From Prorocentrum cordatum (Eukaryota), in contig CAUYUJ010000123.1 of assembly GCA_963575745.1 (NCBI GenBank), positions 62,001 to 117,947 on the forward strand: a stretch of 55,947 bases of DNA, written 5' to 3'. Shown piece after piece: positions 1 to 47,426 of this stretch. The notes under the pieces are model-generated. The model made no database searches, had not been told where the DNA came from, and saw nothing but the letters and a program-made list of their open reading frames with translations. Position numbers and translations under genes: made by a program. Position 1 is the first letter of the stretch. Each line of letters begins with the position of its first letter.

Positions 1-3000
1 GCTGCTCTCCCCGATGCTGCCCAGGAGATCGATGCTGTCGAACTGATCGGAGAGCGTGACGAAGTCCCACATCCGTCGTGCTCTGCCCTGTTGGACTCAT
101 CGGCCGCCTCCTGGCGTTGAATTCTGTCATGCATAACCTGAAGCCTGGCGGCGCTGCTAGGCCCCCTCCCCCCCTCGGGGGGATTCGGCGGGCGCTGCTG
201 CTGCCTGCACCTCGGCTCCAGGAGTTGCAGGAGGGGAGGGGGTTGCTGTGCCCCTTGTCTCGTCCCTCCTGCGGGCCACTCGGCCACGAAAACGGGCTAT
301 GCCTGACTCTCCAGAGTCTACCCGCTGACCCTTGTGGGCCTGGCTGATGTCTTCTCCTGGAAATGCGGGCACTGGACCGAACGCCTCTTCGAGGGCTGCA
401 GCTGCGGCGGCGGCTGAGGTGTGCTGGCGCGTCATGATGTCGATGCCCTCATACTGCCTCTCGATGCTGGCCCCTGCCGCCTCCGCGTTCTGCTGGGACG
501 CAGGGGGAGGGGTCAATACGAAGCTGTCGGCTCCCTCTCCACCACCGTGGCCGCGCTGCTCCTCATGCCCGAATGGAACTGTGGGCGTGAGTGACATCTC
601 GCTGAGTGGCGCTGGCGATGCTGGAATGAGGATTACCTGAGATGCTGTCGGGGTGGGAGGGTCTCCTTGCACTGCTGGTATCGAGCTAGCCCTTGACGTG
701 GATGCCAGGTCTGTGTCTGCCTCGTGCTGCGTGATCCCCCTCATCTCATCACCCTCATCGGGCGTGGGGTGATCCTGGCTCCAGGGCGGCCACCTGGCGG
801 GGTAGATCATCGGCGCGTGCTCCGAGCCGTCGTCCTCCGCTCGTGAGTCCTGCGTGCCCGCTGTGCCGAACTGGGTCAGGGGGGCCTCCTCGTAGTAGCG
901 CCTTTGGATCTCCTTCGCCTCGTGGTCCCTCACTACGGACTCCAGCTCCTCCTCCATCTGCACGGCTTCCCATTGTGCTTTCTCCTCAGCAGCTTGCCTG
1001 TGCAACTCATCTTGTTCGCGCTCGTATCTTTCTGCCTCCTCGTGCGGGTCTGGCCTGTCGGGGCTCCTGGACCTGTCGCGCTCTGTGAGGAGGGCCTCGC
1101 CTTCGTCGGTCTGGCGGGTTGCTGACCTGGCTGACTTTGATGCGGGCCTCCGAGGGGAGGGGCTGCTCTGCCTGCGGCCCCTGTTGGCTGGGCGCTCTTC
1201 AGCTGCGCCAATTTGGAAGGTCGCAACGGGGGGCTCGACTGTGGCGGCCGCTGCCTCGGCTGCTCCTCTGGCTTCCTCGTACAGGTCGGCGGCCTCCTGG
1301 TAGTCGTCCATGGACTCTTGGGACGTTGGGAGGTGGCCCCCTTGGACGAGATGATGAGCTGCCCTCTTGGTGAAGTCGTAGCCCTCCTGTCCGTATTGCC
1401 TCATCTCGGCGTACAGGTTGACCATGGCCTTGCGTTCGCGTTCCCTGCTGGCTGCGATGGCTTCCAGGCTCTGCATCCTCAGCTTTAGCTCCTCTGTCTC
1501 CGACGCGCCCTGCTGCTCCTTCTTTGCGATGGCGTCTAGCTCGGTGTGCAGCGTGCTGGAGCGCTGGAGGCTTTCTTGCAGCGCAAGGTGGATAGCCTCC
1601 TCCCTGCCCGTCCTCTGCTGGCTGGCGAAGTCTTCCATGGCGGAGGCCTCCTCCATGCTGGCGATCCTGAAGGTGAGGGCCTGGGCGAGCTCCTCCTCGA
1701 GCGCCTGCTCCTGCACCTCTGCGTTGGACTTTTGCTCGCTCAGCTGCACCGCGTAGCTGCTCAGTTCCTGTCGCAGGCTCTCTGTGTGCAGCTGCAAGTC
1801 ATGTGCGCTCGCCTCTTCTATCATGACTTGGCGGGTGAGACTCGCCCTTATTCCCTCAACGCTGCCTTCGAGCTCTGCCCGCATTGCCTCCTTGTCCTTC
1901 AGGCTGGCCTTCGCGATCTCCTCCTCCTCTGCTCTGGTCCTTAGCAGGGCGAACTGCAAAGCCTGCACCTCATGCGGGACTTGCCGCTCCTTGTTGGCGC
2001 TTCTCAGCTCCGCTGCTTCATGGTATGCCACCTGTGCTGCCCGCTGCGCAGCGCCCGCCTCAAGCTTGGAGTACTGCTGTAGCTCGTGTATGCGGGCTTC
2101 AGCTGCCTCGAGCTCGTTTTTGGTCTGCTTGAGCCGCTCCTGCTGCCGTGCTGCTGTCTGGACGATCCCTTGCAGCCTGGCCGCCTCTGCCGGCGGGAGG
2201 GCCCCTTTTCCCTTGGCGTTGGCAACCACTTGAGCCTGGGCGATTGCCTGGACCCTGGCTGATTCGGCGGCAGCTTCTATCTCGAGGGCGTGGTTCTTTT
2301 TGGCCTCCTGGAGCTTCTCTTCCATGACCAGCTCCTGCCTGGCGAGCTGCTGCTTGAGATTACCCGCTGCAGCTGTCGCTTGGGCGCTCTCATGCTGGGC
2401 CCGTCGCAGTGACTCTTGTGCCTCGGCTCTTGCCCTCATCAGGTCTTGGTAGGCGCCGTCCTGGGGTTGCGGCTTCTCCCGGTGCTCCGCTCGTACTTGC
2501 TCGAGCTGCTCATGCAGGTGATTTGCCCGGTGTGTCGCGGCTTCCGCCTCTGCCTTGGCATGAGTGAAGGCTGTGTCATGGCTGATTATTCTGGCCTCCA
2601 TCTGCGTCGCGAACTCGAGCTGCTCGTATTGTTGCCTCTTGATCTCATGTCGGAGGGCCTTGTGTTGCTGCTGTTGCTGCTGCTGGGCTGCGCTCTCCGC
2701 TGCGGTGATGCGCTGCAGCTGCTCTGACTCCTCCTTGAGTGCCAGCCTCAGTTTCGCCTGCTCGCCATTGTGGCGGAGTGCTTGTTCGCGAGCAACCCTC
2801 CTTACTTCCGCCAGTTCGGCAGTGAACTCTTGCTCGGCTTCGGCATGGCGCTGCTGCTGGCGGGCCCGCTCCGCATTTGCCTTGGCCACCTGATCTGCGA
2901 AGCCTCTGGTTGCGCTGCCTGCCGAGCTGGCTCTTGATCGTGGCGATTGCCCCACCACTCCTGATGGCCAAGCTGGGAGTCCGTCACCAGGTGCTTCGCT

Positions 3001-4205
3001 GTTCAGGCGCCTGTCAATCACAGCCTTGTGGAAAGCATCCCAGCTCGGTGCCAAGCCGAACCCGTCCGTGTCCCAGTCGCCCTCGTCGTCCGCCGCGCCG
3101 CCGTCGGCGAGCACAGCCCTCACGTCGGCGATGTTGGACTCGAGCTGCCTCAACTCCTGCTGCTTGGCCTTGAGGTCGTCCCGCAGCTCGTTCGACTTGG
3201 CTTCTAGGGCGATGACTTCGAGTTTGACGGCCTTGCGCCTCTTGCTGAGCACCTGCAGCTGGTCGTTCGGCCTTCTCGTGACCAGCTTCTGATACTTGAT
3301 GACCGCGATCTCCCGTAACTGCTCTTCAGTGCTGTCCCCCGCGGCCTGCTTGGCAATGATCAGGTCGCCCAGCTTCCTCAGCCTCTGATCGGCGGTGCTC
3401 AGGAACTTCTGGATGCCTGCGCGGTCGGCCGGGGGCGCCTGCCACTTTGGGTGGGTGGTGGCCTGGTCCAGCGTGCATGCCGCCACTGAGTCGATGACCT
3501 TTTGAGCACGCTGGTCCGCTTTGCTGGAGCTGGCCTGGCCACCCTTGCCCGCCCTGGGCTGCTGCTGCTGCTGCTGCCAGGGATGCTGACTGGGCTGCTG
3601 GTGCTGCTGCTGTGGCCATTGGCGAGGGCTGGCCTGGCCAGAGCGTCGTGGCCGCGACGGCTCCCTGCGCCAGGGCGGTTCCTCAGCAGCTGGCTCGGCG
3701 TGCCAGTGCTGTTCTCGCCAGCCAGCGCCGTGCCACCTCTCCTGACGCCATGGGGGCGCTGCTGGCGGTGCTTCTTCCTCTTGGGCCTGGCCTTTGCCGC
3801 TACGGCCACCACCGCCTCTGCCCTTACCATCACGAGCCATCGCTGGCTGGGCGGAGTGGTGGGCGGCCAGGCGCTCGGCCGCTGCCCGCAGGCGGAGCAG
3901 GAGCCTGTCCTGGGCTCTCTGCTGCCGCTCGCGGCGGTGGGCAGCGCCCTCTGGAGCTCCTCCTCGATGATGACGCGGCGTCCCGCCGCTTGGCCGCAGC
4001 GCGGCCGCGAGCGCCGCGGCCTGCGGCAGGGGACAGGGAGGCACGGGTGGCCCCCTGCCGCAGGGTATGGCGCGCGGCGCGCGTGAGCCCGGCCTCGGGG
4101 GCTGGCCGATGCGCGATGCGCCCTGCCACCGCGATCGATCGGGCGGCAGGCGCCGACCGACCCCGATGGATCGATCGGGATCGGCTGGCCCCAAGAGGCC
4201 AAATG
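1..4205 (-). mobile_element. Non-LTR retroelement A, 5' portion (continues beyond window start)
   Basis: ORF1 is homologous to that of LINE B. The base-paired leader at 4020-4200 abuts a (CCT)n tract. ORF2 is not visible in the window. Confidence 0.6.
157..3840 (-). CDS. ORF1 (gag-like, coiled-coil) protein of non-LTR element A; 1227 aa from the first ATG, probably N-terminally extended to ~3999
   Basis: Uninterrupted frame starting MARDGKGRGGGG with a long E/Q/A/K coiled coil. The block HPKWQAPPADRAGIQKF...EIAVIKY aligns by eye with ORF1 of elements B and C. The part of the ORF-track call above ~4200 is only (GGA)n read-through. Confidence 0.75.
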   Translation of the reverse strand: MARDGKGRGGGGRSGKGQAQEEEAPPAAPPWRQERWHGAGWREQHWHAEPAAEEPPWRREPSRPRRSGQASPRQWPQQQHQQPSQHPWQQQQQQPRAGKGGQASSSKADQRAQKVIDSVAACTLDQATTHPKWQAPPADRAGIQKFLSTADQRLRKLGDLIIAKQAAGDSTEEQLREIAVIKYQKLVTRRPNDQLQVLSKRRKAVKLEVIALEAKSNELRDDLKAKQQELRQLESNIADVRAVLADGGAADDEGDWDTDGFGLAPSWDAFHKAVIDRRLNSEAPGDGLPAWPSGVVGQSPRSRASSAGSATRGFADQVAKANAERARQQQRHAEAEQEFTAELAEVRRVAREQALRHNGEQAKLRLALKEESEQLQRITAAESAAQQQQQQQHKALRHEIKRQQYEQLEFATQMEARIISHDTAFTHAKAEAEAATHRANHLHEQLEQVRAEHREKPQPQDGAYQDLMRARAEAQESLRRAQHESAQATAAAGNLKQQLARQELVMEEKLQEAKKNHALEIEAAAESARVQAIAQAQVVANAKGKGALPPAEAARLQGIVQTAARQQERLKQTKNELEAAEARIHELQQYSKLEAGAAQRAAQVAYHEAAELRSANKERQVPHEVQALQFALLRTRAEEEEIAKASLKDKEAMRAELEGSVEGIRASLTRQVMIEEASAHDLQLHTESLRQELSSYAVQLSEQKSNAEVQEQALEEELAQALTFRIASMEEASAMEDFASQQRTGREEAIHLALQESLQRSSTLHTELDAIAKKEQQGASETEELKLRMQSLEAIAASRERERKAMVNLYAEMRQYGQEGYDFTKRAAHHLVQGGHLPTSQESMDDYQEAADLYEEARGAAEAAAATVEPPVATFQIGAAEERPANRGRRQSSPSPRRPASKSARSATRQTDEGEALLTERDRSRSPDRPDPHEEAERYEREQDELHRQAAEEKAQWEAVQMEEELESVVRDHEAKEIQRRYYEEAPLTQFGTAGTQDSRAEDDGSEHAPMIYPARWPPWSQDHPTPDEGDEMRGITQHEADTDLASTSRASSIPAVQGDPPTPTASQVILIPASPAPLSEMSLTPTVPFGHEEQRGHGGGEGADSFVLTPPPASQQNAEAAGASIERQYEGIDIMTRQHTSAAAAAAALEEAFGPVPAFPGEDISQAHKGQRVDSGESGIARFRGRVARRRDETRGTATPSPPATPGAEVQAAAAPAESPRGGEGA

Positions 4206-4208
4206 GCT

Positions 4209-4530
4209 TCCTCCTCCTCCTCCTCCTCCTCCTCCTCCTCCTCCTCCTCCCTCTCTTCCTCCCTCTCCTCCTCCTCCCTCTCCTCCTCCTCCTGCTTCCT
4301 TCCTCCTCCTCCTCCTCCTCCTCCTCCTCCTCCTCTCCTCCTCCTCCTCCTCCTCCTCCCTCCACCTCCTCCTCCTCCTCCTCCTCCTCCTGCTTCCTCC
4401 TCCTCCTCCTCGTCCTCCTTGTTCCTCCTCCTCCTCCTCCTCCTCCTCCTCCTCCTCCCTCTCCTCCTCCTCCTCCTCCTCCTCCTCCTCCTCCTCCTCC
4501 TCCTCCTCCTCCTCCACCTCCTTCCTACCT
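4209..4530. repeat. (CCT)n microsatellite
   Basis: Directly visible. Confidence 0.98.
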
Positions 4531-5475
4531 CCAGCTTGTGATGGCGGCGGTGGAAAACAGGCCCATCACCGCGGGATCGGCACCGCAGCGGGCTCGATGC
4601 GCGCGGACGGACGCACGAGGGATCGGCGCCCATGCCCCGCCTCGGGGAGCAAGAGCAGCAGGGCGAGGGCGACGGAACCCTGGGATGAGGAGTCCATCGG
4701 CGGCGAGCGAGGTGGGGGAGCGAGGGGGAGGCCCTCTCGGAAGGCTCGGAGGTGCCCCGGCCTTCTGAGAAGTCTTCTGGGCCTTCCCCGACGACACACA
4801 AAACGCTTCTCAGGAGGCGCGAGGGCTTCTGCGAAGTCCCGCCGCCCTCTGAGAAGGCCTTCTCCCTATCATCTCCCCACTGGCTCGCCGCCGACTCATA
4901 CTTGCAGATTACGCAGGAGAAATGAAATACACTCAAACAGAAACTCCAACATAGCCAAACAAAAACACGAAACGTAGTTTCCAGACCATGTTTGCGACCA
5001 TCCTCGAATATGCCTCCTGTAGAGAGGACGTGCCCGACTGAACCCAACGCGAGCTGCACACGACGACGGGGGGAGATGACGGCAGCCCCACGGTCTCCGG
5101 ACTCCCTCGCGGACCTCCGCATAGCACCTTTTCGTGGGCCCCTTTTTCCGTGGGCGAACAATGGCATCGGAGGCACAACTTGCACCACAACAAAAACCAC
5201 CCAATGGATGGTTTGAAATGGGATCGGTAAAAAGATCGAGAAGAAAATCGACCGGGAACCCTGGAACCCAGAACCCACCGAAATCGGCCCCGAACCAAGG
5301 GCTATAGCAACCCAGGAGCCCGGAACCGGGAAGCCGGGAACCCGGCCGGCCCCCAAAATCGGCGGGGCACTTTCGCCAAGGCTTTCCATTTCCGCCAGGA
5401 CCCCTTCAAGGCAAGCACTGCTTGGGAACAACGGCACAAACATAGGGAAACGAACAATGACATAAGCATCACAAC

Positions 5476-6215
5476 TCGGAGGTCCGCGCGGATTTCTCGG
5501 ATCGGCGCTGGGGCCCCCTGGCGGCGCCTCCAGAGCCGCCCCTGGCGCGCTCCGCGCGCCACGGAGGGGGGTCCAGCGCAGATCCAAGAAATCCGCGCGG
5601 ACCTCCGAATTTTTATGTTTGTGTCCTTTTCCGTTCCCCTAAAGCAGAACCTCTCGGAGGTCCGCGCGGATTTCCGCCAGGACCCCTTCAAGGCAAGCGC
5701 TGCTTTTTAAAGGGGCCCAGGGACACACAAAGAAGTACACACGAATACAAGGATTCCCCATATGTTTCCATCTGTTTTGGATGCTCGTCTTCCCCCCACT
5801 ATTTTCCCACATTTTTCTTGGGATCGACGATGAATTGTGTCTGTGTTTTTTTTGTCCCTCCTGAGTTTTGGGGAACAACGGCCCACACAGCACCTCTCGG
5901 AGGTCCGCGCGGACCTCCGAACTTTTATGTTTGTGTCCTTCTTCCTTCTTCGTTCCCCTTCTTTGTGTCCCTCCTGAGTTTGGGGGAACAGCGGCACAAA
6001 CAGAACCTCTCGCGGAGGTCCGCGCGGATTTCCTGGTTCGGGGGGGTGCAAATCATGACCGGCGGCATGTGCGCGGCCCAGCGGGGGGGCCAGGGACGGG
6101 GCCAGGGACGTGATGAAATATCATGGCCCCCTATATGATATCCCCCCCCCCTAGTCATCACCCCCCTCTTTTCCGCCCCCGAAAAGCAGAACCTCTCGCG
6201 GAGGTCCGCGCGGAC
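5476..6215. repeat. Cluster of foldback/dispersed repeats built on GGAGGTCCGCGCGGA(CCTCC)
   Basis: The motif recurs near 5478, 5590, 5656, 5899, 6013 and 6199. 5478-5606 has ~26-bp terminal inverted repeats, and a related foldback lies at 34060-34167. Confidence 0.8.
5710..5865 (+). repeat. Dispersed repeat (GGGACACAC...TCGACGAT..ATTGTGTCTGTG..CCTCCTGA)
   Basis: Diverged copies at ~11825-11990, ~34280-34440 and, partially, ~34585-34662. Confidence 0.8.
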
Positions 6216-17045: not shown

Positions 17046-17739
17046 TTGTAAGTCTACGAAGTCCGAAGGAACACCAGGGGGGCTTGCCGCCAAAGAGGCA
17101 GCGGAACGCATGCAAACCAAAGGAACGACCGAGCCCTTTTGAAAAGTGAGTGTTCCTTATTCAAGCCAGACCCTGCAGGACAACAGTTGAAATCCGTGTA
17201 GAAAGATCATGCGCAGAGAAGGCCGACCCTGCTCCAGACCGAGCCAGGGGACAGAGGGGAGTGGTACTCACGTCGTGCAGATGTGAGGGGGCAGGAAGAA
17301 AGGAGAGAGGGACAGGCAAGCTAGGTGCGCTCGCGCCTTTTCGGACATCCGATCCCGCCCACATCCCTTCCTGTTGCGAAGACGTCTTCTCTACCCGCGG
17401 ACGCGTGTCATAGCCGACCCAGAACTCAAACAAGGGCCCCGTCGTGCTATGCAGAGTCCGTGGACCAAAAGGGACCTGCGCACACCGGAGGGGATGGCGG
17501 AGGACGAGGACCAAGAGCGTCAGCAGGAGCTGGAGTGGAAGGAGCGGGAGAGAGAAAGAGAGAGAGAGACAGCCCATAGAGGTGTCAGGAGCGCTCCTAC
17601 ACCTCTGGCCCTGCGCCGGGCTGTGGAAGGAGCGGGACGAGCAGGATGGCCAGGGGAAGGCGGAGGGGGCGACGAGGAGGGGGGCGGCAGCGAGGAGGCA
17701 GGACTCGGGCTCTGGAAGAGAGGCCCATGCCGGAGAGAG

Positions 17740-17885
17740 GGGGCGCTCTCCTCTCAACGACAAGGACACAGCGCCGATCCGAAAGCGAGGTCCACGCTGC
17801 AGCGAGAGCGTCATGCCGAAACACTGGGGACTGTCAGATTGAGAAGACAGAAGGGACATAATCTTTGGAATCCTGTGTAACAGCA
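17740..17885 (+). repeat. Dispersed repeat (GCGCCGATCCGA.A..GAG..CCACG.TGCAGC)
   Basis: Related copies at ~19125-19325, ~29400-29535 and ~30390-30510. Confidence 0.7.
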
Positions 17886-18001
17886 GTGATGCGCGGAGAG
17901 AGCCGGCGATCTTCCAGACAGAGTCAGGGAGCAGGGGGAAGTAGTATTCAGAATGTGTAGTTGTAGAGAGGAGTGATGTGGAGCAGAACAAAAGAGAGGA
18001 A

Positions 18002-18933
<932 letters not shown>

Positions 18934-19723
18934 AGAAGAAGAAGAAGGAGGAGGAGGAGGAGAGAGGAGAGATGCAAGCTAGGTGCGCTCGCGCCATATC
19001 TGACAACCCACCCGGGATCCGAAGGAGTGGGAGGAGCCGGAGGACCAAAGGAAGGCGGAGGAGGGGAAAAGATGGGGGCGACAATGATGAAAAAGGACTC
19101 GGAACCAGAAAAGTGGTCATCGCCTGGGCGAGAGCGCCATTCTGAACGACGGCAGCAAAGCGCCGATCCGAGAATGAGACCCACGTTGCAGCAGGAACGC
19201 CATTCTGAATCACCGAAGGTAATCGGATTGCAACGCAATATTAGAACACCGAAATCATTACATCTGGTGTGTAACATAAACAATACGCGGAGGGGAGCTT
19301 GATGCAACGTTTGGAACCCTGTGTACAAAGATAAAACTCGCTGAGGAGGAGGATAACGAAGAGCATGAGGAGGAGGAGGACGAGGAGAGAGGTAAGCTTG
19401 GCGCCGTGGTGCCATATCCGACATCCTACCCCTCCCTCCCATCCCTTCCCGTTGCGTTGATTTCTTCTCTATCCGCGGACGCGTGTCAAAACCGACCTGG
19501 AATTCCCAAACCTACCCCTATCGTGTTAGCGCAATCGGAAACGGAAAAGGGGAGCTGCGTCCATAGGAGGAGGATGAGGATGAGGAGGAGAAGGTTTGGG
19601 ACCGAGACCTTTCTGGCACTCTGGAGAGAGCCAGAGCGTTCTTCATACAGAACCACTCGGACTCACCTTATACGTTGCTTAACAGATTCAGTTCTCTTTC
19701 TGTTGTGATCTAAGCCGTGCATT

Positions 19724-21485
19724 TTGCCAGAGAGCAGACACAACACGGGAAAAGAGAAGAGTTGGCATCGACGCCTACGTGCACAAAGGGGAGCTTGCAG
19801 ACTACTATTACGTGCACTGCGAGCCAGAGATATCTTAGCATCACATCATTCTGCACAAAATATGACGGGCAAAGGAGGGACACGTAGCTCAGGACCAGGA
19901 GTGCAATGGGATTGTATGCAGTGTGGACGGTACGTAACAGGGCATCACTGGCGTTGCTTGTGTGGACAGACATATGGACAGAACCAACAACAGCAGAATT
20001 GGGCTCATCATGGTTCAGTATTGCCTGGTGGTGCACATTATGGTGGTACGGGTTCAGGTCGGGCGCAGGCACGTGAGGTCAAGTCCAGAGCATCATCAAG
20101 GCCGAGGGGACCTGGGACCAATGATCATGACAACAAAAAAGCTGTAAAGAAGTATCTAGCATCCGTCATGCCAGCTTGCAAGTCAGACGCAGAGAGTTCA
20201 CCGTTCTTTGAGCCCGCTCCTATGGAGATCGAAGGCCTCAAGAAGTTCAAGGCATCAGTGAGGCAGAAGCCCCAGGGCCTTGCCACTCTGGGTATTGCTG
20301 GGCGAAGCGTCGGGAAAGATTGCCTTGACACGGTCAACGAGATTTCTGTTCTGAAATATATGCTAAGCATGATGGAGCCAGTCACCAGGCAGCTCCATGA
20401 GTTGCGCCAGAGAAAGAATGTTACCACGGACAGAATGAAAGTGCTGGAGGGAAGGCTCAGATCTACACAACTGGACATACAGCAGTGCCAAGTAAGAGTT
20501 GCAGCACATCAAAACCAGCATCGAAGAGCTTGAGGAGCTTGAGGACTCGGACACCGAGATGGCGGATACGTGCGCGGACGATCGTGGCGGTGGAGGTGGA
20601 GGCGGGGCATGTGCAGCGGCTTCGGTCGCGGCTGAGCGTCCCGCCCCCCAGAAGATCCACGCGCCGCGTGGTGAGGTTCGCGCGCATCCAGCAGGCGCAG
20701 CCCCAGAACCGACGGTCCCAGGACCGCCCAAGGCTGAGCCGCCGCCGCTCGGATCACAGCTCGAAGGCATGATGCAGATTCTGTCCAACCTCATGGCAAA
20801 GCAGAATCACACGGAGTCGGTGCTCAACAGTCTTGGGACTTTCGCGATGCAGCAGGCTACGGCGGCCAGTGTCACCAGTGCGACAGGGGCAGGAGGATCG
20901 ACGGGAGTTTTTCCTGCTGGGGGACCTGCGGCGGCGACGGCAGGGCCAGCCCCCGAGGGAGCGCAATTCAAGACGCCGCCGCACAAATCCAGGGCGGCGA
21001 ACAGTCCAGGGCCAATGAGAGCACCGCCAACACCAGTGGGGGGATGTCCAACACCAGTCGCAACTACGCCAGTGGAGCCCTCGATCAAGGCGACAATGCC
21101 CAACTTCGGACAAAATGGAGATGGCGAGATACCTTGCATGTCACAGATCTCACCGACCCAGCCGTTTCATCACATGGAGATGGAGGATCCCCATATGCCA
21201 GCGCCGGAGACATCGGTAACGGATGGCAGTACGACGGCAAGTTCGACACCTATGGGAGCCCCATATACGACAGAGCGAATCGCCGAGCAGACTCGCAAGA
21301 GGAACGAGAGGGAGGCCGCAGCGGGGGCGGTCGAGCGCCCAGTTCCAGCAACACCAGAGGGCTCGCCGAGTGGTCTCACCGACGCGATGGGAGTTGTCAA
21401 CCTCGTGAGCCAGGCCACGCAGGAGACACCCGTAGACACCGAGACGGCCAGTCCGCCGCGCAAGGAGGCAAGGACCTCCGCGTGA
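19724..21485 (+). CDS. LINE B ORF1 (Zn-ribbon plus coiled coil), one frameshift near 20495
   Basis: WDCMQC...WRCLCG RanBP2-like ribbon and the shared ORF1 block SPFFEPAPMEIEGLKKF...EISVLKY. Removing one A in CAAGTAAGAGTTG joins ORFs 19724 and 20499. First ATG is at 19862. Confidence 0.75.
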
Positions 21486-22789
21486 GGCTGGGCGCAGTGC
21501 AAGTCAGATTTTTCCGAACAGATGAGGGGCCACCAATAATTTCTTCCCCCCCCCCATGCCACTCCAAGGCGTTCCATACTGGGACCTGTTGTTTGCAGTA
21601 TTGAAATCCCAGTGGGCTCATCCAGTTCGGAGAGCAGGGCATCATCCTGCCACAGTTTAGTTTCCCTTGACGTTGCTAGCGATGATAATGTCACTTGTCA
21701 GGCTGTTGAGAATATGTCGGGTAACCACGTAGGATCCAGTCTTGATTTCTCATGAGTTTCTTGGGCATGGGGAACCCCTAAGGAGTATGTTTTTCCTCGA
21801 GCTTGCTTGCACGTGTGTATGTGGAAAAAAGTTAGAGGTTATCGTTTTGCGGTTTTTGAGTTTTCATCTAGCTAGGTCGTGCAAGTCTCCAGCTGAGACT
21901 GCGCGCGCGATCAACTCATGCGAGCCAGAGCCTTTGAAGCATTCTGGTCTGAATGTTCAAGAGGCTGGGGGTGGGCGCTATCATTGTCTGGATTTCGCAG
22001 AGGGGTGTGCTAAGAGTAGAAACACCCCTCCCTCGGAAGACAATGACTGGGTGCCTGCTCTTGGCTCTCTATGGTGAGAAGCTTTAGATGGGGCGGGATG
22101 GGCTGGAATAGGGTGGGGAGGGGGCAGTCCGACTACACAGGTCTTGAGACCCGACGCTCCTGTCTTTGTTCCGCGTGAGGCCGAAGTCAGAGGGGCTTGG
22201 CCCAATCCGTTGGCACCAGCTTGGAGAGAGGAGGCATATCCCGCTTGCGATCGTGAGCCGCCCTGTCCCTTGTGGTGTATCGCAGAAGAAACATCACTGT
22301 TTGGGTTGCTCCATGACTTCTCGCTCGATGCTTGGATTTCGATTTACCATGCCCCGACGGTGCGTGTAACCACATCGTCTGAATTAAGCAATGTTTTGGT
22401 ATATCAAGGTTCGCTTCTAGGCTTGCAGGCAGCTGTTTCGTTTCCTAATATCCAGGTCAACGCTTTTCAGTTTCTCTGGGGCTCTCGGCTGAGTTTCGAA
22501 ACCTATCTGTGTTGTCCTGGGTTCACCTATTTTCATCCTGGGCCGATACTGGCCAAATTACTCCCACGCCGTTCTATCCCCCCCCCCCGACACTTCAACC
22601 TGTCGGGGAAGAGGCGAGGCATCAGGTACAGTTCCCCCACTCCAGAGCCCTCCTCCTGGCTCGGGCACTGCTCCTCTAGTTTGCCCAATGAGTCGTTTGG
22701 AATCCCTATATTTGATCATTCAGCGACATGGCAGGCTGATCTGGACAACCGAAACCGAAGGAATACAAATACCAGAGTTGGTTCAACTT

Positions 22790-23285
22790 GCCCTGGATAT
22801 GTGTCCGACGAGACAAGCGGACTGGACAGCATTTCATTTTTTCACTGACGGGTCCGTCAAGGACTTAGACATGCAGTCTGCCACGTGGGCGGTTGTCCGA
22901 ATATCTGAGGACTCGAACGGGCTCTCTTACACTGGGCATGTGCACGGGTATCTTGCAGACACCTGCAGGACACCAATTACCGCCAACAGACCCTCGTCAA
23001 CGGACGCGGAGTATGTAGGTGTGATGTGGGCTATTATTGCCATTATTTATGAAGTTGCCACGTTTGGTACCACGACAGCGACTATCAACACAGATTCATT
23101 GAATGTGGTTACGGCATTGCGAGGTGAACGAGCACTGGATACGTCTTGCAGGCTAGCGGTCATGACAAGAGTGCTATGGGATTTAGCTGGGACAATTGCA
23201 AAGGTTTCGATTTCTCATATTAAGGGTCACGATGGACACCCTTGGAACACTTTTGCCGACAAACTGGCCCTGGGGACCTCGAGGT
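22790..23285 (+). CDS. RNase H domain, N-terminal part of LINE B ORF2
   Basis: FFTDGS...STDAEYVG...INTDSLNV...HIKGHDGHPWNTFADKLA: all four RNase HI acidic residues plus the His loop. Confidence 0.88.
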
Positions 23286-23509
23286 GACTTGGTTCCACCT
23301 AGCTTTCCTTACGAACTGCTTGAGGTCACATTGCGCTCTCGTGAAAGGGAATGGGAATGGTTGAGTCAGCTGTCTGATAGTGAGCGAGCAGCTTATCCTC
23401 CGATTTCCTCCGAAGGGTTCTGTTCCTTCCCTTGTTGTGACAAGGTCAATGTTGGCCATGTACCGGACCCCTTGGGATCCTCCAAAGTTATCAAGGCCCA
23501 GGTAAGTTG

Positions 23510-24305
23510 CTCACTCACTGTTGTTCAATATAATGTTAAAAAACTGACGCGACGTGAGTATTACGGCGCAGCGGGGCGTAAAAGGCGAGCCCGTCGAGTC
23601 ATGGCGCGATCCCAACTAGTGGAAGAGGGTGTCCACATCGCGGGGATGCAGGAAACAAGGAACCCAAAAAGGCGATCGCTCATGCAAAGGTTTTGCTATT
23701 TTCTCCTCGGGAGCTGGGCCAGGTGATGACTCAGGCTTAGGGGTGGAGCTTTGGCTCAGTCTGGACATTCCGTATGCTCAAAAATATGGTAAAGATTTTT
23801 TTTTTTCAAAGCGTCATGTTCGAATTCTGCATTCCACCCCACGGATGCTTGTTGCCTGCATTAGGGCACCTGAGCTTTGTCTCACAGTTCTGGTTGGGCA
23901 CGCCCCCCACAGTAAGCTAGACGTCGCAGTCAGAAATAGCTTTTGGGCTGATGTGGCACAACAGACAGCAGACTGGTGCCCTGATCTTTTTCTTGTTGAT
24001 GCCAATGGGCGCGTTGGTTCACAGGTTTCCGAATTTGTTTCCGATCAAGGTTTCTCGCAAAAAGAAGATAGCAACGGGGCCAGTCTGCATAACATTTGTG
24101 CGATTTCGGGGACCCATTTGTTGAATGCGCAGACCGCAGCGGCAGATGATTACACGTGCACCTGCCCTGGGGGGGAGCACCATCGTATTGTCTACATAGG
24201 GTGCTCTCAATTTTTACGAGACTATGCTAAGAGCACCGAGGTGCTACATGATTTTGACACTGGGCTGAAAGGAAAGGACCATTACCCCCTCAAGGCCAAG
24301 TTTGA
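23510..24305 (+). CDS. APE-type endonuclease domain of LINE B ORF2 (frameshift near 23665)
   Basis: VVQYNV...IAGMQETR...GHAPHS...VDANGRVG...RIVYI...DHYPL (EEP motifs; the RIDY motif reads RIVY). Confidence 0.85.
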
Positions 24306-25179
24306 ATGGCAGCAAGCCGTCAAGTATCCCCTTCTTCAGGCTAAACCCATTGACATGAGGCGGCTTAAAAATCCTGATGATGTCGCCCATTTCAAGACAC
24401 TACTGAATGCCATTCGCCAACGAGAATGGGAGCTCAATGTTTCCAGTCATGCGCTGGAGGTGCTTCAGGATATCAATGATGCTGCCAATACTGCATATGC
24501 GAAGAAGGCGCTTCGAACCAGGAGGCAGTATGTTGACGATGATTCTCTCGTTCTCATACGATTCCGACGTGGGGTGCACAAAGCGCTTCGCACCTGGCAG
24601 GGGCGTGGCTCAGAGACTTGTGAGCGTAGGTTTTCTTCTTTTGCTTTCAGGGTGGTTGCTGGGGACCTAAAACTGCTCATTGGGACATGTGACTCCAGCT
24701 GGTGGGTTTCTCAGTTGCGAAATCTTGAGCAAGCCTCGATCCAGCGCCTTCGTGCCAGGATGGGTTTTGAGCAGTATTCGCAGGCTCTTCTGGTTTTTCT
24801 CACATCCACTGAAACGGTTTTGCATCATCTTTTAGAAGCAGATCGCACACGTTTGTTGGACAAGAGTGGAGATAACATCAACACTGCCATTGATGGTGCT
24901 CAGCCTCTCTCTGAGTGGACGGCAGTCAAGAAGTTGCTTTTGTGCGGGGGGAGGCCATCGAGGCCAAAACAGGGGCCCCCACCTCTCCCAATGATCAGGA
25001 CACCGCTAGGTCAGGTTTTAAGGGAGGAAGACGACATCGCCGATCACATCCAGCAGCACTTCTCGGGCGTTGAGATGGGCAAGGCAGCACAACCACAGGC
25101 TCTGGTTGACGACTATAATCAAATGTTGCCCCTTCTCGACACAACCTTCCCTCGTGATATTACAGTTGTTCCTACCATC

Positions 25180-26330
25180 TATGATGTTGAAGCGGGCCTC
25201 GCGAGGCTGAAAACTGGCCGGGTCCCTGGGGCCGATGGTTTCCGAGCTGAATATGGCAAGGCAGCCTCGAAGGAATTGGCGAGACTCGTGGCCCCCCTGC
25301 TAGTCAAGACAGCCATCGCAGCTAGGGAACCGATTGCATTTAAATCCGCACGATTGGGCACATGTCCCAAAGGTTCAGGGGATTTCACTTTGGCCGCTTC
25401 ACGTCGGAGCATTTTGGTTTCTCCAGTTATAACCAACATGTATCATACATGTTTAAGGAGTCTTGCCATGGGCTACTTTTATGCCTCAGTGCAATCAGTG
25501 CAGATGGGAGGAATACCTGGTCGGGGGTGCGACATTGCTGTCCTCACCTCGCGCTTGCTTTTTCAACTTGCGGAAATCCACGGGCTTTCGACCAGGGCTT
25601 TACTTCTGGAACAAAAAAAAAGCGTTTTACACCACCTTGAGGCAGTTTGTCTTGGCGCTCCCGCAAGACAGTGAGGATGTCGAGTACGTGCTTGCTCATA
25701 TGGATTTGCCCCCCCTGCTTTTAGAAGGGCTCAAGTCCCAACTGGCTACTAAGCCGATGTTTGAGGATCGGATTCCATCCGAACATCTCCTGGCCCTCAT
25801 TAAAGAGAGTCAGCGGGGGGCTTTCTGGAGAGTTGCTTCGGCATCTAACTATGCCCTGCCTCGCCGAGGCACCAGGCCAGGCACCGTTTTCCCAGCGGAT
25901 ATTTTCAATGTTGTTTTCCAGGGGGTTCATACCGACATCAATCGGGAGCTCCATGATGTTTATGATGTCCTGGCTTCGTTTGGTTTACCCACCACTGATT
26001 TATTTCTGGCAAGAGAAGCACAACTTGACACCAGAGAGTGGGGGACCTCCTTCGTGGATGATCTCACCCAGCCCTTTGTCACCTCTGAAGCGGGGCAGCT
26101 TCTAACGACTGCGCAGCGGGTGCTTGATGCTGTGTATCAAGCCTGCTGCATTCGTGGCGTAATCCCTAATGCTGCCAAAACGGTTTTCATTTTAGATTTT
26201 CGGGGAAAGGGTTCGATGGCAGCGAGACTGGATAAGAACGGAGATCCTCATCTCCATGTCAGGTCTGACGCATGGGACTTTCAAGCCAAGATTGTCACTG
26301 ATCACCGTGTACTAAGGTCCTTCCTCTCCC
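25180..26330 (+). CDS. Reverse transcriptase domain of LINE B ORF2 (frameshift in the A run at ~25613-25621)
   Basis: GRVPGADG...PKG...RRSILV...QMGGIPGRG...KAFY...RGTRPG...FVDDL...NAAKT. Confidence 0.9.
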
Positions 26331-27019
26331 CCACCAACAGCATGGCTACGGAAGTGGTTGCAAGATGCCACGGGGCCAAGTCAGCTTTAGCCCCCATCAA
26401 GAAGGTCATCGGACCTAGGGGCATGCTCAGCATTCGTAAAAAGGTGCTGTATGCAGAATGTTTAGCTAGCTCCGTGCTGCTTTACAATGCGGCAACTTGG
26501 CTCGAACTCTCACAAAACTTGTGGAACAAAAAGTACGCATCACACATGAACAGGTTTATCGTGCGGCTCTGCATCTTCCGCGCGCCAACAACTCAGGAGA
26601 AAAAGTCGCGTACTTTGAGGTGTTGGGCCAAGTTTCGCGCCTTCCTCTTAACGTAGTGCTTTCGGTGGCACGCCTTAGGTTATTAGCTCGGCTCATGGCT
26701 GGCTGTCCGGATATTCTGCGTGTTTGTTTGCAATATCTTTGTGGGCCGATTAGAGGCTGGATGGCTCTTATTGAGGCTGACCTAGGCTGGCTCACCTCTT
26801 TCCTTGATCCCAGCAAACGGCCGCAGGACAATGCTGTGCTCAGCTGGATCAGGATTATCAAAGACAGCCCTAAGGCCTTTCGTTCCACCTTGAAGATTGT
26901 TGCCTCCAGAGCAGTACGATTCTGGAACGACCAGTTCCACCTTGAGGCGTGGAACAGGAGGTGCAGGCAGCACCTTCGGGGGTCCCCCCTCGAGAAGCAG
27001 GTTGGGCCTGCGCCCGCAG

Positions 27020-27205
27020 TGAAGTGCCCCCATTGTCCTGCAGTTTTTGTTTCTGAACGTGATTACCACGTCCATTTGGGCAAGTTTCATGCCCCCCACA
27101 GTGCGCCCAAAAACTTTGTGGTGGGGACTTGCTGCCAGGCTTGCTGCAAAGATTTTCACACCCCTGGGAGGCTCCACACACATGTTTCCAGAGTTGTGCG
27201 TTGTC
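27020..27205 (+). CDS. Two C2H2-type zinc fingers in LINE B ORF2
   Basis: CPHCPAVFVSERDYHVHLGKFH and CQACCKDFHTPGRLHTHVSRVVRC. Confidence 0.75.
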
Positions 27206-27474
27206 GTCAGGCCTGTTTTTTTTTCTCGGGACGTTGTCTTGGGGATGAGACGGCCATTGCTGCGAATATGCTCGAGGTTCGTGAGCAATCCGCTGCGAAT
27301 CGCAAATCTGGCAAGCAAGATCATCAAACGGTCAAGCCCCCCAAGCGTTCCTTTGGACCCCCCGTTGCTCTACCAGGACATGGGCAGCAGCTACCACAGT
27401 TCGACGCGCCTGAAGAGGTACCGCCACCGCCACCGCCGCCAGTATTCAGCCCCTTGCGGGCACCGTGCAGGCCA

Positions 27475-28250
27475 CAGATGTACATCTTACATCTCTTTTC
27501 AGGATATCGACGACAGGACGACTTCCAACACCAGGTGGAAGTGGCTTTAGAGCGGTTCCAGGCTAATATTATAGTTTTATCTATAGATGTCATCAACCAC
27601 CCTGTACGGGGTGACTTAACCAACGATAATCCAGTGCTAATGTGGATTCGTTTGGCTAAATCAGGACGCGTGGCTGGGGCCATGGCAGGTCCCCCCTGCG
27701 AAACGTCGTCGATTGCCCGTTTCAGGGAACCTGTTCAAGGAGCCCGTGGGCCCCGTGCGAGACCACCCAGACCTCTGAGGCTTGCATCACAGCTGTGGGG
27801 ATTACCGTTTGTCTCTGAGCGTGAGTCTGATCAGCTCTCTCTTGGGAACAGACTGTTGAGAACCACACTTGAATTTGCAGTGGTTTGTTGGAGGCTGTTC
27901 ATTCCTGAAGTTGTGGAGCACCCTGCAGAGCCTTGGAGCCCCCCAGAGGCCCCGAGCTCTTGGCACTTGGAGCTCACCAGAGACCTTCTTCAACAACCAG
28001 GGGTGGAGAAGCACACTATACATCAATGTGTTTTTGGGGCCCCCTCGCGCAAACCTACGTGTCTCATGGGTGTGCATTTTGGTGCCCTTCGGGATGCCCT
28101 TCGGGCTAGGCCTCAAAGGGGTCCTCTGTAACCATCATATGGGGCACATTGCTCTCGAAGGTGTGGATCAGCTGGGGGTCTGGAACACCGCACATGCAAA
28201 AGTTTACCCCAAAGGGCTATGCGAGCTTCTAGGGAGGGCCTTTGCTCAGG
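27475..28250 (+). CDS. C5 DNA cytosine methyltransferase-like (DNMT) domain at the C-terminus of LINE B ORF2 (frameshift near 28120)
   Basis: Motifs in order: I LHLFSG, II LSIDV, III GDLT, IV AGPPCET (catalytic PC), VI VVEHP, VIII QCVFGAPSRKPT, X-like AKVYPKGLCELL. Confidence 0.85.
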
Positions 28251-29580
28251 AGGCATGGGTGAAGTTTCCCTGGTTATTCGATACCCCCCACCGCCACTAC
28301 CCACTCCCGCATCGACTGTGACGACACGAAGGTTACGATTCAAACAACCACCACGACCCGCAGTGCGGGTACATGCCGATAGGCCGCGACAAGAAGGATG
28401 GAATACTAAGTTTGTACCTACAGATACGCAACATGTATGGACTTATGAAGACGAGTTATGGTTAAGACAGCAATATAATCTTGACGAGACATGCGATGAG
28501 TGGTTACCACCGTCATTGCGAAGATACTACGTGCCACTGGACCCGTACATGGACACGAGAACGATTGGTATGGATTGCATGCGACAAAATAGGCCAGACA
28601 GAGAGGATGCAGGGCAGAGCTAACTCACTTTCTTCTATGTTGCCCTGCCCCGGCTCACCTGATGTCTCGCCTAACAGCAACTTTGTAAGCCTCTTGGGGG
28701 CCTCACCAGTACAGTGTAGGGACCAGAGGTAAGTGAAGGGCTGGACTATGAAGGTGATGCCGTGCCCACCCAAGTGCCGCCAGTGTACACTCACTCTAAA
28801 AAGTAGTAGTAGTCCAGTGCTGTCTACTATGGTATATAGCTCGACATGGTCAGTAGCTGACCCTCTGGGGGTGAAGGCTTCTTTTCCAAATATATTACCT
28901 ATTTCCTTTTTCCCTCTTATAGTGTACGCCCACTTTAAAAGGCAGTAGCCCATACTGCACTGCATGATCAGGGAGGGAGAGGGTAGAGATGGGTGGGGTT
29001 CCATGACCTATGGCTGCCAATCTCACCTGACTTGATTGCCCCTGTACGGCCTGGTGCAGCTGTGTGGCTGCACAGAGCCGAGGCTTTACACTGTTGCTGC
29101 TGGCTGCTGGCTCTGCTGCCGCCGCCGCTCTTACCCCCCATCCCCCTCTTTTTGCCGTCCACCCTCTGTGATCGGGCTTCCACTCTCTGCCCTAAAGCCG
29201 CGAACGAACGAACGAGGAGGAGGAGAAGGAGGAGAAGGAGGAGGTGGAGGTGGCGTGTGAGCAGGAGGAGGACGAGAAAAGAGGAGGGCAGGACGACCAG
29301 CAGAAGAGCTGGAGCGGAAGGAGCTGGAGAAGCGGGAGGACCATGAGAAGACGCACGCGACAAAAACCAAGGGGGGCGACAGCGATGCAACAAAAGGAAT
29401 CGGATCCAGGAGAGCGGCCCGCGCGGGGGCGAGAGCGCCTCTCTCTGAACGGCGGGCGCAGAGAGCCGGTTCGAGAATGAGGGCCACGCTGCAGCGGGAG
29501 CACCAGTGGTGCTCCAGAAGTGGCACTTCTGAAGCACCGACGACAAGCACATAGAAAACACACGCAGCAGAAAAACATAG

Positions 29581-29730
29581 GGGGGCCACATGCGAACCCT
29601 ACCCCTGCCCCCCACGATTTCTGAGGGGGAGGGTGGGGTTCACTTCGTTCGGGAGCTCCCGAGCGAAGTGAGCCCCACCCTCCCCCTCAGAAATCGTGGG
29701 GTGCAGGGGTAGGGTTCGCATGTGCCCCCC
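29581..29730. repeat. 150-bp spacerless palindrome (foldback element)
   Basis: 75-bp arms centred on GGGAGCTCCC at 29651-29660, ~4 mismatches. Confidence 0.95.
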
Positions 29731-29959
29731 CAAAACAAACAAGGCCGAATCCCGTGCAAAAAACAGTACGTGCGCTGACATCCTGCCACTCCCTCCCAGC
29801 CCTTCCCGCTGCGCTGATGCTTTCCAAATCCGCGGGCGCGTGACGAAGCCGCCCTGTAAATCTCAGAAGAGAAAAACCCAACGTGTTGTGTGCGCGGTCG
29901 GAAAAGGGAAGCCGCGCGGACAGGAGGAGGGAGAGGAGGAGGTGGCGGATGAGCAGGAG

Positions 29960-30280
29960 GTCGGCTCCGGGCCAGGAATTTCCTGCTGGTGGTCAGCATG
30001 CCGGGACGGGGTGGGGGGTCAGGGTCGGTTCCGGGCCAGGAATCGTCGGTTCGGGGGCCCCAGGAACAAAGGTTCCAATGGGTCAGGATGCCGGGGCGAG
30101 GTGAAGGGTCAGGGTCGGTTCCGGGCCAGAAGTTGTCGGCGGGGGGGGGGTCCAAGAGCCACGGTTCCAGTGCGTCAGGATGCGGGGGCGAGGTGGGGGG
30201 TCAAGGCTCGGTTCCGGGCCAGAGATTGTCGCGGTTGGGGGGCCCCAGGAGCAGAGGCCCCAGTGGGTCAGGATGCCGAT
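29960..30280. repeat. Degenerate ~90-bp tandem repeat (GTCAGGATGC...GGGTCGGTTCCGGGCCAG)
   Basis: Three to four units, with GGTTCCGGGCCAG at ~30027, ~30117 and ~30210. Confidence 0.75.
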
Positions 30281-30579
30281 GACGAATAGCAGCAGCAGAA
30301 GAGCTGGAGTGGAGGGAGCGGGAGGGGCAGGAGGGCCAGGGGAGGGCGGAGGACGGGCAGGAGGGGAGCGACGACGATGCAAAGAGGGCTCGGATCCAGG
30401 AGAGCGGCCCGCGCCGGGGCGAGAGCGCCGATCGGAACGGCGGGGGCCAAGCCCCGATCCGAAAACGGGGCCCCCGCTGCAGCGGGAGCACCACTCTCGA
30501 AACACCGAAGACAATCGGACCATAAACGATAAGCAGACGACAAACATTGAAATCCTGAGCGTTACATATATATATATAT

Positions 30580-45700: not shown

Positions 45701-46785
45701 TCAAACACCTCGACGAGCAGCAACGAGGCCAGTTGCACCAGCCTCCAGCTTCGACCCCAACACCTCGTTGAGCAGCGACAGGGCCCGCTGCCACTGCCCC
45801 CCGGTGCTGCACGCGCTGATCCCAGCACTGTAGCTGATGATATTGGGATCCAACTTCGACGCCGACATCTCGCTGAGCAGCGACAGGGCCCGCTGCCACT
45901 GCTGACCTTTCACGCAAGCACTGATCCCAGCACTGAAGCTGATGACAGTGGGCTCCAGCTCCGACCCCAACATCTCGCTGAGCAGCGACAGGGCCCGCTG
46001 CCACTGCTGACCTTTCTCGCAAGCGCTGATCCCAGCGTTGTAGCTGATGACAGTGGGCTCCAACTTTGACCCCAACATCTCGCTGAGCAGCGACAGGGCA
46101 CGCTGCCACTGCTGACCTTTCTCGCAAGCGCTGATCCCAGCGTTGTAGCTGATCATAGTGGGTTCCAGCCTCGTCTCGACCATGTCGCTTAGCAGCGACA
46201 GGGCCAGCTGCCACTGCTGACATTTCTCGCAAGCACTGATCCCAGCGTTGTAGCTGATGACAGTGGGCTCCAGCTTCGACACCAACATCTCGTTGAGCAG
46301 CGACAGGGCCCGCTGCCACTGCTGACATTTCCCGCAAGCGCTGATCCCAGCACTGTAGCTGATGACATCGGGCTCCAACATCGACCCCGACATCTCGCTG
46401 AGCAGCGACAGGGCCCGCTGCCACTGCTTACCTTTCTCGCAAGCGCTGATCACGCCGTTGTAGCTGATGACATCGGGCTCCAGAATCGACCCCAACATCT
46501 CGCTGAGCAGCAACAGGGCCCGCTGCCACTGGTGACCTTTCTCGCAAGCGCTGATCCCAGCACTGAAGCTGATGACATCGGGCTGCGACTTCAACACCAA
46601 CATCTCGCTGAGCAGCGACAGGGCCCGCTGCCACTGCTGACCTTTCACGCAAGCGCTGATCCCAGCGTTGTAGCTGATGACAGTGGGCTCCAACTTTGAC
46701 CCCAACATCTCGCTGAGCAGCGACAGGGCACGCTGCCACTGCTTACCTTTCTCGCAAGCGCTGATCCCAGCATTGTAGCTGACTA
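45701..46785 (-). CDS. Pentatricopeptide repeat (PPR) array, 10 x 35 aa; probably an internal or terminal exon, or an orphan fragment
   Basis: 105-bp repeats encoding VISYNAGISACEKGQQWQRALSLLSEMLGSKLEPT. No ATG; a possible AG acceptor lies near 46783. Confidence 0.92.
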
Positions 46786-47426
46786 GGGCTAAGCCGTGGA
46801 CTCCGTCCACGACCTCTGTCTCGAATGGTCATCGGAGGACCGGCGGAGAGTTCGCCGAGAACCTATAAGCACGGATGCGGCTGGGGCGGTAGTAGCGAGA
46901 CCGCGCCTTCGCGCCCGAGCTCTTGCAGCGCTCCAGCAGCCTGGCCCAGGCGCATGGCTCGTTCGCCCCTCTCCCAGTGGTGGCAGTCTTGAAGTCTCTC
47001 GGGGGCTGTGCTGTTGGCCTCTGCTGCTCTCCTGCTGCCCTCTGCTGCTGGTCCCTGCTGCTTTTTCTGCTGACCTCTGACGCCCTCTGCTTCTCTCTGC
47101 TGCTCTCTGCTGCTCTGTGCTGCTTTCTGCTGGTATCTGCTGCTCTCTGCCAGAGGAGGAGGAGGAGGGGGAGGAGGGGGTGGATGAGGAGGAGGAGGAG
47201 GAGGAGGAGGAGGAGGAGGAGGAGGAGGAGGAGGAGGGGGAAGGACCTTTGCTGGTGTCTGTGCGCCAAAGCCGAAGCCCATCTGAGGCGCCTCGGAAGC
47301 GCCCGGGGACAGGGCTCGGGAGGCCCTCGGGGAGAGCCGCCAGGGGGCGCCGGGGAGGCTCGAAGGATCTCCAGGGGGGGCCCAGGAAAGCTTCACAAGA
47401 GGGCGTGACATTGAGGAGATCGGTCT

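Follow-up and report, generated by a model that had tools for sequence, protein, structure and literature searches.

Retrotransposons carrying DNA methyltransferase (DNMT) domains are known from a handful of lineages and have been found by means of the Pfam DNA_methylase profile (PF00145). In the part of a preprint available to us (bioRxiv 10.64898/2026.05.21.726589), from the same group as the SymbioLINE-Dnmt paper, the elements listed are SymbioDIRS-DNMT3, SymbioLINE-DNMT, Gypsy-DNMT3 of streptophytes and the EpiLTRs of Cymbomonas and Euglena; a DNMT at the C-terminus of open reading frame 2 (ORF2) of a long interspersed nuclear element (LINE) is not named in that part. In SymbioLINE-Dnmt, as described in the accessible sections of its report (de Mendoza et al. 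2018, PMC5890265), the DNMT is PF00145-positive and is encoded by ORF1, which precedes the ORF for the reverse transcriptase (RT). Here a stretch of 55,947 nucleotides from Prorocentrum cordatum (contig CAUYUJ010000123.1, positions 62,001 to 117,947; hereafter the window) was analysed, which contains a LINE whose ORF2 ends in a DNMT-like domain that escapes the PF00145 profile. This ORF2 C-terminal domain is abbreviated CTD. On balance, the element is best read as a member of a very large LINE clade, of which no description was found, whose ORF2 protein (ORF2p) ends in a domain of the cytosine-C5 methyltransferase (C5-MTase) fold, most likely active in intact relatives.

Like SymbioLINE-Dnmt, as far as the latter is covered by the sections cited, the element is a LINE with an apurinic/apyrimidinic-type endonuclease (APE) and RT, target-site duplications (TSDs; candidates in the present case), no poly-A tail and a cytosine-methyltransferase-type domain; the untranslated regions (UTRs) of SymbioLINE-Dnmt are conserved (PMC5890265). 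Symbiodiniaceae, the hosts of SymbioLINE-Dnmt, also harbour many relatives of the present element. Unlike in SymbioLINE-Dnmt, however, ORF1 is devoid of a DNMT, and ORF2 continues beyond RT and two zinc fingers into a terminal DNMT-like domain that is invisible to PF00145. The first-pass annotation of the window had assigned the element to the class reported from Symbiodiniaceae, an assignment that therefore had to be given up. With SymbioDIRS-Dnmt3, Gypsy-DNMT3 and the EpiLTRs it shares the addition of a DNMT-type domain to a retroelement polyprotein, and in the EpiLTRs of the green alga Cymbomonas, which belongs to the order of Pyramimonas, the DNMT lies at the 3′ end of pol (bioRxiv 10.64898/2026.05.21.726589, available part). 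Those long terminal repeat (LTR) and DIRS elements, as described there, carry recognisable DNMT3- or DNMT4-related domains, whereas the present element is a LINE and its domain is far more divergent. Retrotransposon-borne DNMTs are already known; the placement of so divergent a domain at the C-terminus of ORF2 in a LINE appears to be new. No description of a DNMT-like domain in this position was found in the literature searched, which did not extend to Repbase, subscription journals or supplementary files.

Organization of the element

The bounds of the insertion were obtained by comparison with an uninterrupted neighbouring repeat unit (29757-30060), which aligned with the left flank up to about position 19594 and resumed at about 29217. 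The GC content was 0.53 inside 19595-29216, compared with 0.61-0.64 in the flanks. The following features were assigned:

19595..29216, + strand: non-LTR retrotransposon insertion of about 9.6 kb, within a unit of a host tandem repeat
19582..19594, + strand: left candidate TSD, GAGGAGGAGAAGG, an exact GA-rich 13-mer adjoining the element start
19862..21485, + strand: ORF1 candidate, first ATG at 19862, in the overlapping stop-free frames 19709-20533 and 20496-21485
22832..23269, + strand: RNase H, N-terminal in ORF2; Pfam PF00075, E 2.1e-8, 34.9 bits (cut-off 25.8)
23520..24291, + strand: APE-type endonuclease, in frames 3 then 1; colinear (tblastn) with PF03372-bearing relatives, e.g. P0054 (E 5e-8)
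25204..26512, + strand: RT, in frames 1 then 2; aligned to residues ~1058-1498 of L157
27025..27183, + strand: two C2H2 zinc fingers (27025-27090 and 27130-27183); Pfam zf-C2H2_4, E 8.9e-4, under the cut-off; both kept in L157
27475..28620, + strand: DNMT-like CTD of ~380 aa, in frame 1 to ~28122, frame 2 at ~28124-28318 and frame 1 again to the stop codon at 28621-28623
27697..27699, + strand: Cys codon of the Pro-Cys pair (motif IV equivalent), P and C 100% conserved in 193 CTDs
27916..27918, + strand: Glu codon of EHP (motif VI equivalent), after beta-5 in both structural models; E 100%, H 99% and P 99% in 193 CTDs
28624..29200, + strand: 3′ UTR; proteins of relatives without homology past 28620
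29201..29215, + strand: (CGAA)n tail; Tandem Repeats Finder, period 4, 3.8 copies, 100% matches
29217..29229, + strand: right candidate TSD, GAGGAGGAGAAGG, a 13-mer adjoining the element end

L-numbers denote metagenome loci and P-numbers denote proteins of the CTD family. The + strand of the insertion consisted of a chain of overlapping stop-free frames. ORF2 was colinear, over residues 208-2094, with an intact ORF of 2125 aa in L157, which matched RNase_H (E 4.9e-6), RVT_1 (E 6.6e-14, residues 1118-1403) and a C2H2 finger. None of the window pieces gave a Pfam match to RVT_1, Exo_endo_phos or DNA_methylase, even at E ≤ 10, and the endonuclease and RT of the window were identified through homology to relatives, not through Pfam matches of their own. 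Catalytic-looking RNase H motifs were present within 22838-23269 (FFTDGS, TDAEY, NTDSL and FADKLA, corresponding to the pattern DGS, E, D and H..D), as were the APE motifs VVQYNV, GMQETR, VDANGR and GKDHYPL (N, E, D-N and D-H) and the RT motifs PGADGF (25225-25242) and FVDD (within 26048-26062). The full L157 ORF retrieved nothing from the PDB sequences at E ≤ 0.01, and solved structures thus gave no placement of the RT.

ORF1 showed a Cys-rich stretch (CMQCGRYV... at 19913) followed by a predicted coiled coil and a region of low complexity; no Pfam family reached threshold in ORF1, and no DNMT match was obtained in 19709-21485. As in LINEs of the APE type, a single ORF combined APE with RT, and the insertion had a simple-repeat tail and a candidate TSD of 13 nt. 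The 13-mer is of low complexity and occurs nine times in the window, making it a weak TSD. No terminal repeats of the element were seen among 20 of the 39 repeat families returned by the repeat search. The element is almost certainly a full-length LINE with the order RNase H, APE, RT, two C2H2 fingers and CTD, and both element and architecture are directly supported by the data. Extent and order had been proposed in the first-pass annotation and agreed with the repeat-unit comparison and with the colinear L157 ORF. The copy would have been inserted into the host tandem repeat by target-primed reverse transcription (TPRT).

The same annotation had described the copy as complete, which held for its extent alone and not for its coding state. 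Compared with L157, the frame path of ORF2 was 2>3>1>2>1>2, and a seventh segment containing the tail motif was again in frame 1, giving six frame changes; the first five lay at approximately 23269-23340, 23644-23669, 25551-25559, 26509-26527 and 28074-28127, and the sixth falls within 28310-28420. The homologous ORF2 segments contained no in-frame stop, and none of the ORF2 sites was matched among 12 of the 27 indels recorded for contigs of sequencing run X1. ORF1 contained a single frame change near 20494. Contigs of run X1 lacked one base at this site, which would join both frames, indicating that the change is private to this copy or this assembly. These seven frame changes, one of them in ORF1, leave the copy unable to encode its own proteins as assembled.

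RNase H was N-terminal to the endonuclease in ORF2 (22832-24291) and in relatives. In known LINE clades, RNase H is usually placed after RT. No report of a LINE in which RNase H precedes the endonuclease was found in the literature searched, within the scope given above.

The C-terminal domain and its family

Within the CTD, LHLFSGYRR (27487-27513), LSIDV (27577-27591), RGDLTN (27607-27624), AGPPCETSS (27685-27711), VEHPAEP (27913-27933) and HQCVFGAPSRKPT (28021-28059) were found on the + strand, followed by KVYPKGLC (28199-28222) in another frame and by the tail YYVPLDPY...IGMDC (28525-28578) in the first frame again. All DNMT motifs quoted beforehand were thus recovered in order, on the + strand and with the catalytic Cys intact at 27697-27699. 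The two deviations pointed out with them, FSGYR for FxGxG in motif I and EHP for ENV in motif VI, proved to be family-wide in an alignment of 193 CTDs. In this alignment the Pro-Cys pair, the Glu, the K and T of KPT and the D/N of GDL were conserved at 100%, the D of SxD, the H of EHP and the Y of YP at 99%, the G of FSG at 98% and the F/Y at 97%; the family-specific H (of LHLF), RR and GD were conserved at 94-98%. Since the quoted motifs are conserved columns of a family of thousands, they represent more than chance, and their conservation is a matter of direct observation.

A profile search of 1.84 billion representatives yielded 12,072 CTD matches at E ≤ 1e-3 (1,482 at E ≤ 1e-30), counted as representatives of 50%-identity clusters, and in long proteins the CTD was found at the very C-terminus. 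Of 559 candidates close to the query in length, 29 proteins reached E ≤ 0.01; the best match, 97% identical over 129 aa, came from the EukProt set of Pyramimonas sp. CCMP1952. The host itself had the look of a green alga of the Pyramimonas type. A search among longer proteins gave 42 matches, including gene models of Fugacium kawagutii, Cladocopium and Breviolum, and most relatives derived from Symbiodiniaceae dinoflagellates and marine metagenomes. Among 14 long family proteins, Pfam detected Exo_endo_phos in four, RVT_1 in six, RNase_H in one and DNA_methylase in none, while five had no match; P0061, a Fugacium kawagutii gene model of 1967 aa, contained RNase_H, Exo_endo_phos, RVT_1 and CTD in the order of the window. 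No canonical DNMT was detected in relatives, PF00145 being absent from the ORFs of seven long relatives as from the 14 long proteins. A local hidden Markov model of phage DNMTs, run on 3,441 six-frame ORFs of 80 loci and the window, gave nothing below E 0.06, a search of limited sensitivity that might miss the orphan SymbioLINE DNMT lineage.

Of 172 pattern matches in metagenome contigs, 148 passed confirmation, and the best 80 of these were used as loci. RT was located upstream on the same strand in 50 of the 51 loci with at least 2.5 kb of upstream sequence (the exception being L232). RNase H, APE and RT were found together in 27 of the 40 loci with at least 5.5 kb upstream, the other 13 being without detectable RNase H or APE (tblastn, E ≤ 1e-4). 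Run X1 contained 1,258 contigs 90-100% alike, distributed over all 30 bins of the compared stretch including the CTD bins; no RNA run was among the sequencing runs listed as containing related sequence. The CTD is constantly linked to RT, a linkage observed directly, and is not the one-off fusion that would have refuted the first-pass annotation: it occurs in essentially all related copies.

Sixteen loci with stop-free frames of 2,442-3,638 aa were compared with each other. Four-fold degenerate sites differed at 72%, i.e. they were saturated, and amino-acid identity was 0.44 in the CTD, 0.45 in RT, 0.39 in RNase H-APE and 0.37 in the linker. An identity of the CTD level with that of RT despite four-fold saturation indicates purifying selection on the CTD as strong as on RT. 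These counts were used in place of NG86 dN/dS, which was dropped, as only 1-2 of 120 pairs were usable and dS was saturated.

In many related loci, among them L229, L218, L210, L217, L162, L164 and L180, a stop-free frame of more than 3,600 codons was observed, which started about 1,700 codons ahead of RNase H and extended to the edge of the retrieved DNA (positions ~2-5100). No Pfam family was matched by the N-terminal part of five such frames (L229, L218, L162, L221 and L174). The product of such elements may be one giant protein whose extensive N-terminal region is unfamiliar.

Fold and possible activity of the domain

AlphaFold models were obtained for positions 27460-28131 of the window (predicted local distance difference test, pLDDT, 94) and for the relative P0003 (pLDDT 79, predicted template-modelling score 0.79). 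With both models Foldseek listed C5-MTases only, the best E-value for the window piece being 5.8e-5. In a geometry-only search with the full-length relative, short-chain dehydrogenases/reductases (SDRs) scored about 2 Z units below C5-MTases; with the window piece, which is without the last helix, EhMeth (8.9), an SDR (8.7) and DNMT3B (8.7) tied. The nearest named ESM-Atlas cluster for P0003 was PF00145 (score 0.88), which is a lead only. The modelled CTD begins with beta-1 and FSG, a helix, beta-2 ending in SxD, GDL, another helix, and beta-4, after which comes PPC. A long helix leads on to beta-5 and then EHP; Q..G..S.KPT sits on a beta-6/beta-7 hairpin, and YP opens the final helix. In these predictions the order of secondary structures matches that of a C5-MTase catalytic domain with a very short target-recognition domain. 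Residues F18, C81, E119 and R163/R165 of M.HhaI presumably fit F13, C80, E153 and K198/T200 of the window piece, as judged by alignment end-points. By predicted structure, the CTD thus directly displays the class I S-adenosylmethionine (SAM) methyltransferase fold, closest to solved C5-MTases, and it is very likely a true member of the C5-MTase fold superfamily. The match to this superfamily anticipated in the first-pass annotation was borne out at the level of structure, where the C5-MTase fold was the best match, but not at that of profiles, with PF00145 found in none of the window pieces and only weak hhalign comparisons.

Unlike the C5 DNA methyltransferases (DNMT3A/3B, DNMT1/MET1, M.HhaI and M.HaeIII) and Dnmt2, to which it is 12-17% identical and to none of which it gives a significant profile match, the CTD has FSGxRR for FxGxG, EHP for ENV and SxKPT for QxRxR. 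Two further features set it apart: an extra loop (GPRPLRS..LWGL), roughly 20-25 residues long, that comes after the catalytic Cys, and a tail peculiar to the family (Y.PLDPY..G.D). The Pro-Cys pair of motif IV was found at 100%. When a 79-sequence family profile was run against 177,635 PDB sequences, the single match at E ≤ 10 was M.HaeIII (E 1.9), aligned as GflaGPPCeTWSr / GIIGGPPCQSWSE at GGPPCQSWS; with hhalign the Pro-Cys of the CTD also aligned to AGFPCQPFS of Dcm. The columns paired in the weak hhalign alignments were those of motifs I, III and IV, together with motif X in the untrimmed comparison with 61 phage C5-MTases. A 20-sequence CTD profile gave no match among the PDB sequences. 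Calcium-channel beta subunits, retrieved by phmmer with the window CTD against PDB (E 0.5-1.5), were discarded as chance matches. Viral loci found with E. coli Dcm were too uniform to serve as a reference set (64-100% identical), and the Dcm homologues listed were at least 74% identical.

Structure neighbours of P0003 at a template-modelling score of 0.58 included clusters with RVT_2 (93%) or with rve and SH3_retrovirus. A CTD-like domain may, as far as these modelled structures indicate, also be present in Copia-type LTR elements.

In intact relatives the CTD would most likely be an active SAM-dependent enzyme that acts, during retrotransposition, on the C5 position of a cytosine flipped out of target DNA, new cDNA or an RNA:DNA hybrid. 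The invariant Glu would donate the proton, and the nucleophile would be the invariant cysteine of the Pro-Cys pair. From motifs and models, catalytic activity as a methyltransferase appears somewhat probable; SAM binding, catalysis, substrate and biological purpose are what we infer from them. A more specific proposal, which we regard as plausible but tentative, is that ORF2p of a major LINE lineage, found in dinoflagellates and green algae, has at its C-terminus an unrecognised and highly divergent C5 methyltransferase, which would methylate nascent cDNA or the target site during TPRT.

Several observations weigh against an active C5 methyltransferase. PF00145 matched none of eight window pieces at E ≤ 1 and none of five at E ≤ 10, and of 20 family members a single one gave a match (E 0.18). 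The hhalign probability was 2.4% against Dcm and 4.4% against the 61 phage C5-MTases, rising to 7.9% with trimmed alignments (P 0.0043 compared with 0.031 for reversed controls), and these 61 ORFs form a biased set, having been picked by the degenerate motif-IV pattern GGFPCQxF. The match to M.HaeIII was not significant. In motif I the first G of F-x-G-x-G is retained at 98% and followed by R (94%) and R (97%), which replace the second glycine; motif VI reads E-H-P instead of E-N-V, its Glu being 100% conserved and located after beta-5; and in place of Q-x-R-x-R, motif VIII reads Q...G..S-x-K-P-T, with K and T at 100% and no arginine conserved, leaving the arginines that hold the target cytosine in known enzymes without an evident counterpart. 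The window copy has Ser in PPCETSS where 94% of the family, and also the Pyramimonas sequence, have Trp. The DNMT domain of SymbioLINE-Dnmt, which is a different domain, produced no de novo DNA methylation in yeast, a result deemed inconclusive by its authors in the sections accessible to us (PMC5890265). The observed/expected ratio of CpG was 0.70 in the window copy and 0.79-0.80 in its flanks, inside the range of 0.65-1.04 for 4-kb windows. In 21 related loci, for which the fixed coordinates were off the exact ORF2 in four, the median ratio was 0.68 in the ORF2 core and 0.59 downstream (Wilcoxon p 4e-4), i.e. the core was less depleted. The CpG statistics gave no support for self-methylation.

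With motifs I, VI and VIII altered, the substrate may have changed, or the role may be non-catalytic. It is unlikely, but the best supported of the alternatives, that the methyltransferase fold is used without methylation, as a nucleic-acid-binding or base-flipping module or for other cysteine chemistry, for instance to hold the target covalently, and that it aids target-site engagement or second-strand steps of TPRT. FSG-x-RR, EHP and SxKPT depart from the canonical residues contacting SAM and cytosine, the 94-100% conservation of these substitutes suggests a changed pocket, and C-terminal regions of LINE ORF2 proteins generally bind nucleic acid. The residues binding the adenosine of SAM have, however, conserved counterparts in the family (the F/Y, the D of SxD and the D/N of GDL), and the invariant Cys and Glu form the pattern expected of a working enzyme. 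Quite unlikely is a Dnmt2-like cytosine-C5 methyltransferase of RNA or RNA:DNA hybrids, which would mark the transcript or template of the element itself and not genomic DNA; DNMT3, DNMT1, MET1 and M.HhaI scored equally, within 1 Z unit of each other, and the fold search was therefore unable to tell the substrate. That the likeness to DNMTs is convergent or superficial, with Pro-Cys and Glu coinciding by chance in a Rossmann-like domain unrelated to C5-MTases, is very improbable, since the missing significance of the profile link and the SDR tie of the truncated window model are set against five motif equivalents in canonical order on canonical structural elements, a beta-6/beta-7 hairpin that characterizes class I methyltransferases but not SDRs, the SDR scores falling behind for the full-length relative, the exclusive listing of C5-MTases in both Foldseek (3Di and sequence) searches, and the single PDB profile match and nearest named ESM-Atlas cluster (the lead already mentioned) pointing the same way.

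Surrounding sequence and implications

The host tandem repeat around the element (17600-19594 and 29217-30500) has a unit of about 1-1.4 kb. In run X1 the summed contig depth was 2,700-5,500 over parts of this repeat and 30-80 over the element, indicating that the repeat resembles a very abundant satellite-like sequence, and several contigs connected repeat unit to repeat unit without the insertion. A trinucleotide-repeat array of about 1 kb (17943-19000; AGT and related units, GC 0.36, GC skew 0.88) was located just upstream of the insertion.

A second, different retroelement was found on the - strand at 48153-51032, with RVT_1 (E 1.3e-7) in ORF 49776-51032 and RNase_H in ORF 48153-49775 (E 4.7e-5, narrowly short of the cut-off). 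Its RNase H lies downstream of RT, which is the usual order and unlike that of the element at 19595-29216. A fragment of a pentatricopeptide-repeat gene on the - strand (45701-46828; PPR_2, E 2.5e-67) marks the window as eukaryote nuclear DNA. A stop-free frame of 1,455 codons at 157-4524 (- strand), without Pfam match at E ≤ 0.001, may be due to chance in GC-rich DNA or may represent an unknown gene.

If the reading of the CTD as a divergent C5-MTase domain is true, surveys based on PF00145 would have missed it entirely, and retrotransposon-borne DNMTs would be far commoner than reported. Active or not, the domain makes a fold-level annotation possible for a very large protein family. Should it be inactive, a methyltransferase fold would have been re-used as a structural module of TPRT. 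Should it be active, a compact fusion of RT and methyltransferase would be available for study, and it would represent a second, independent and much more abundant route by which LINEs carry a DNA- or RNA-modifying activity, with relevance to the way new insertions come to be methylated in heavily methylated genomes, those of Symbiodiniaceae among them.

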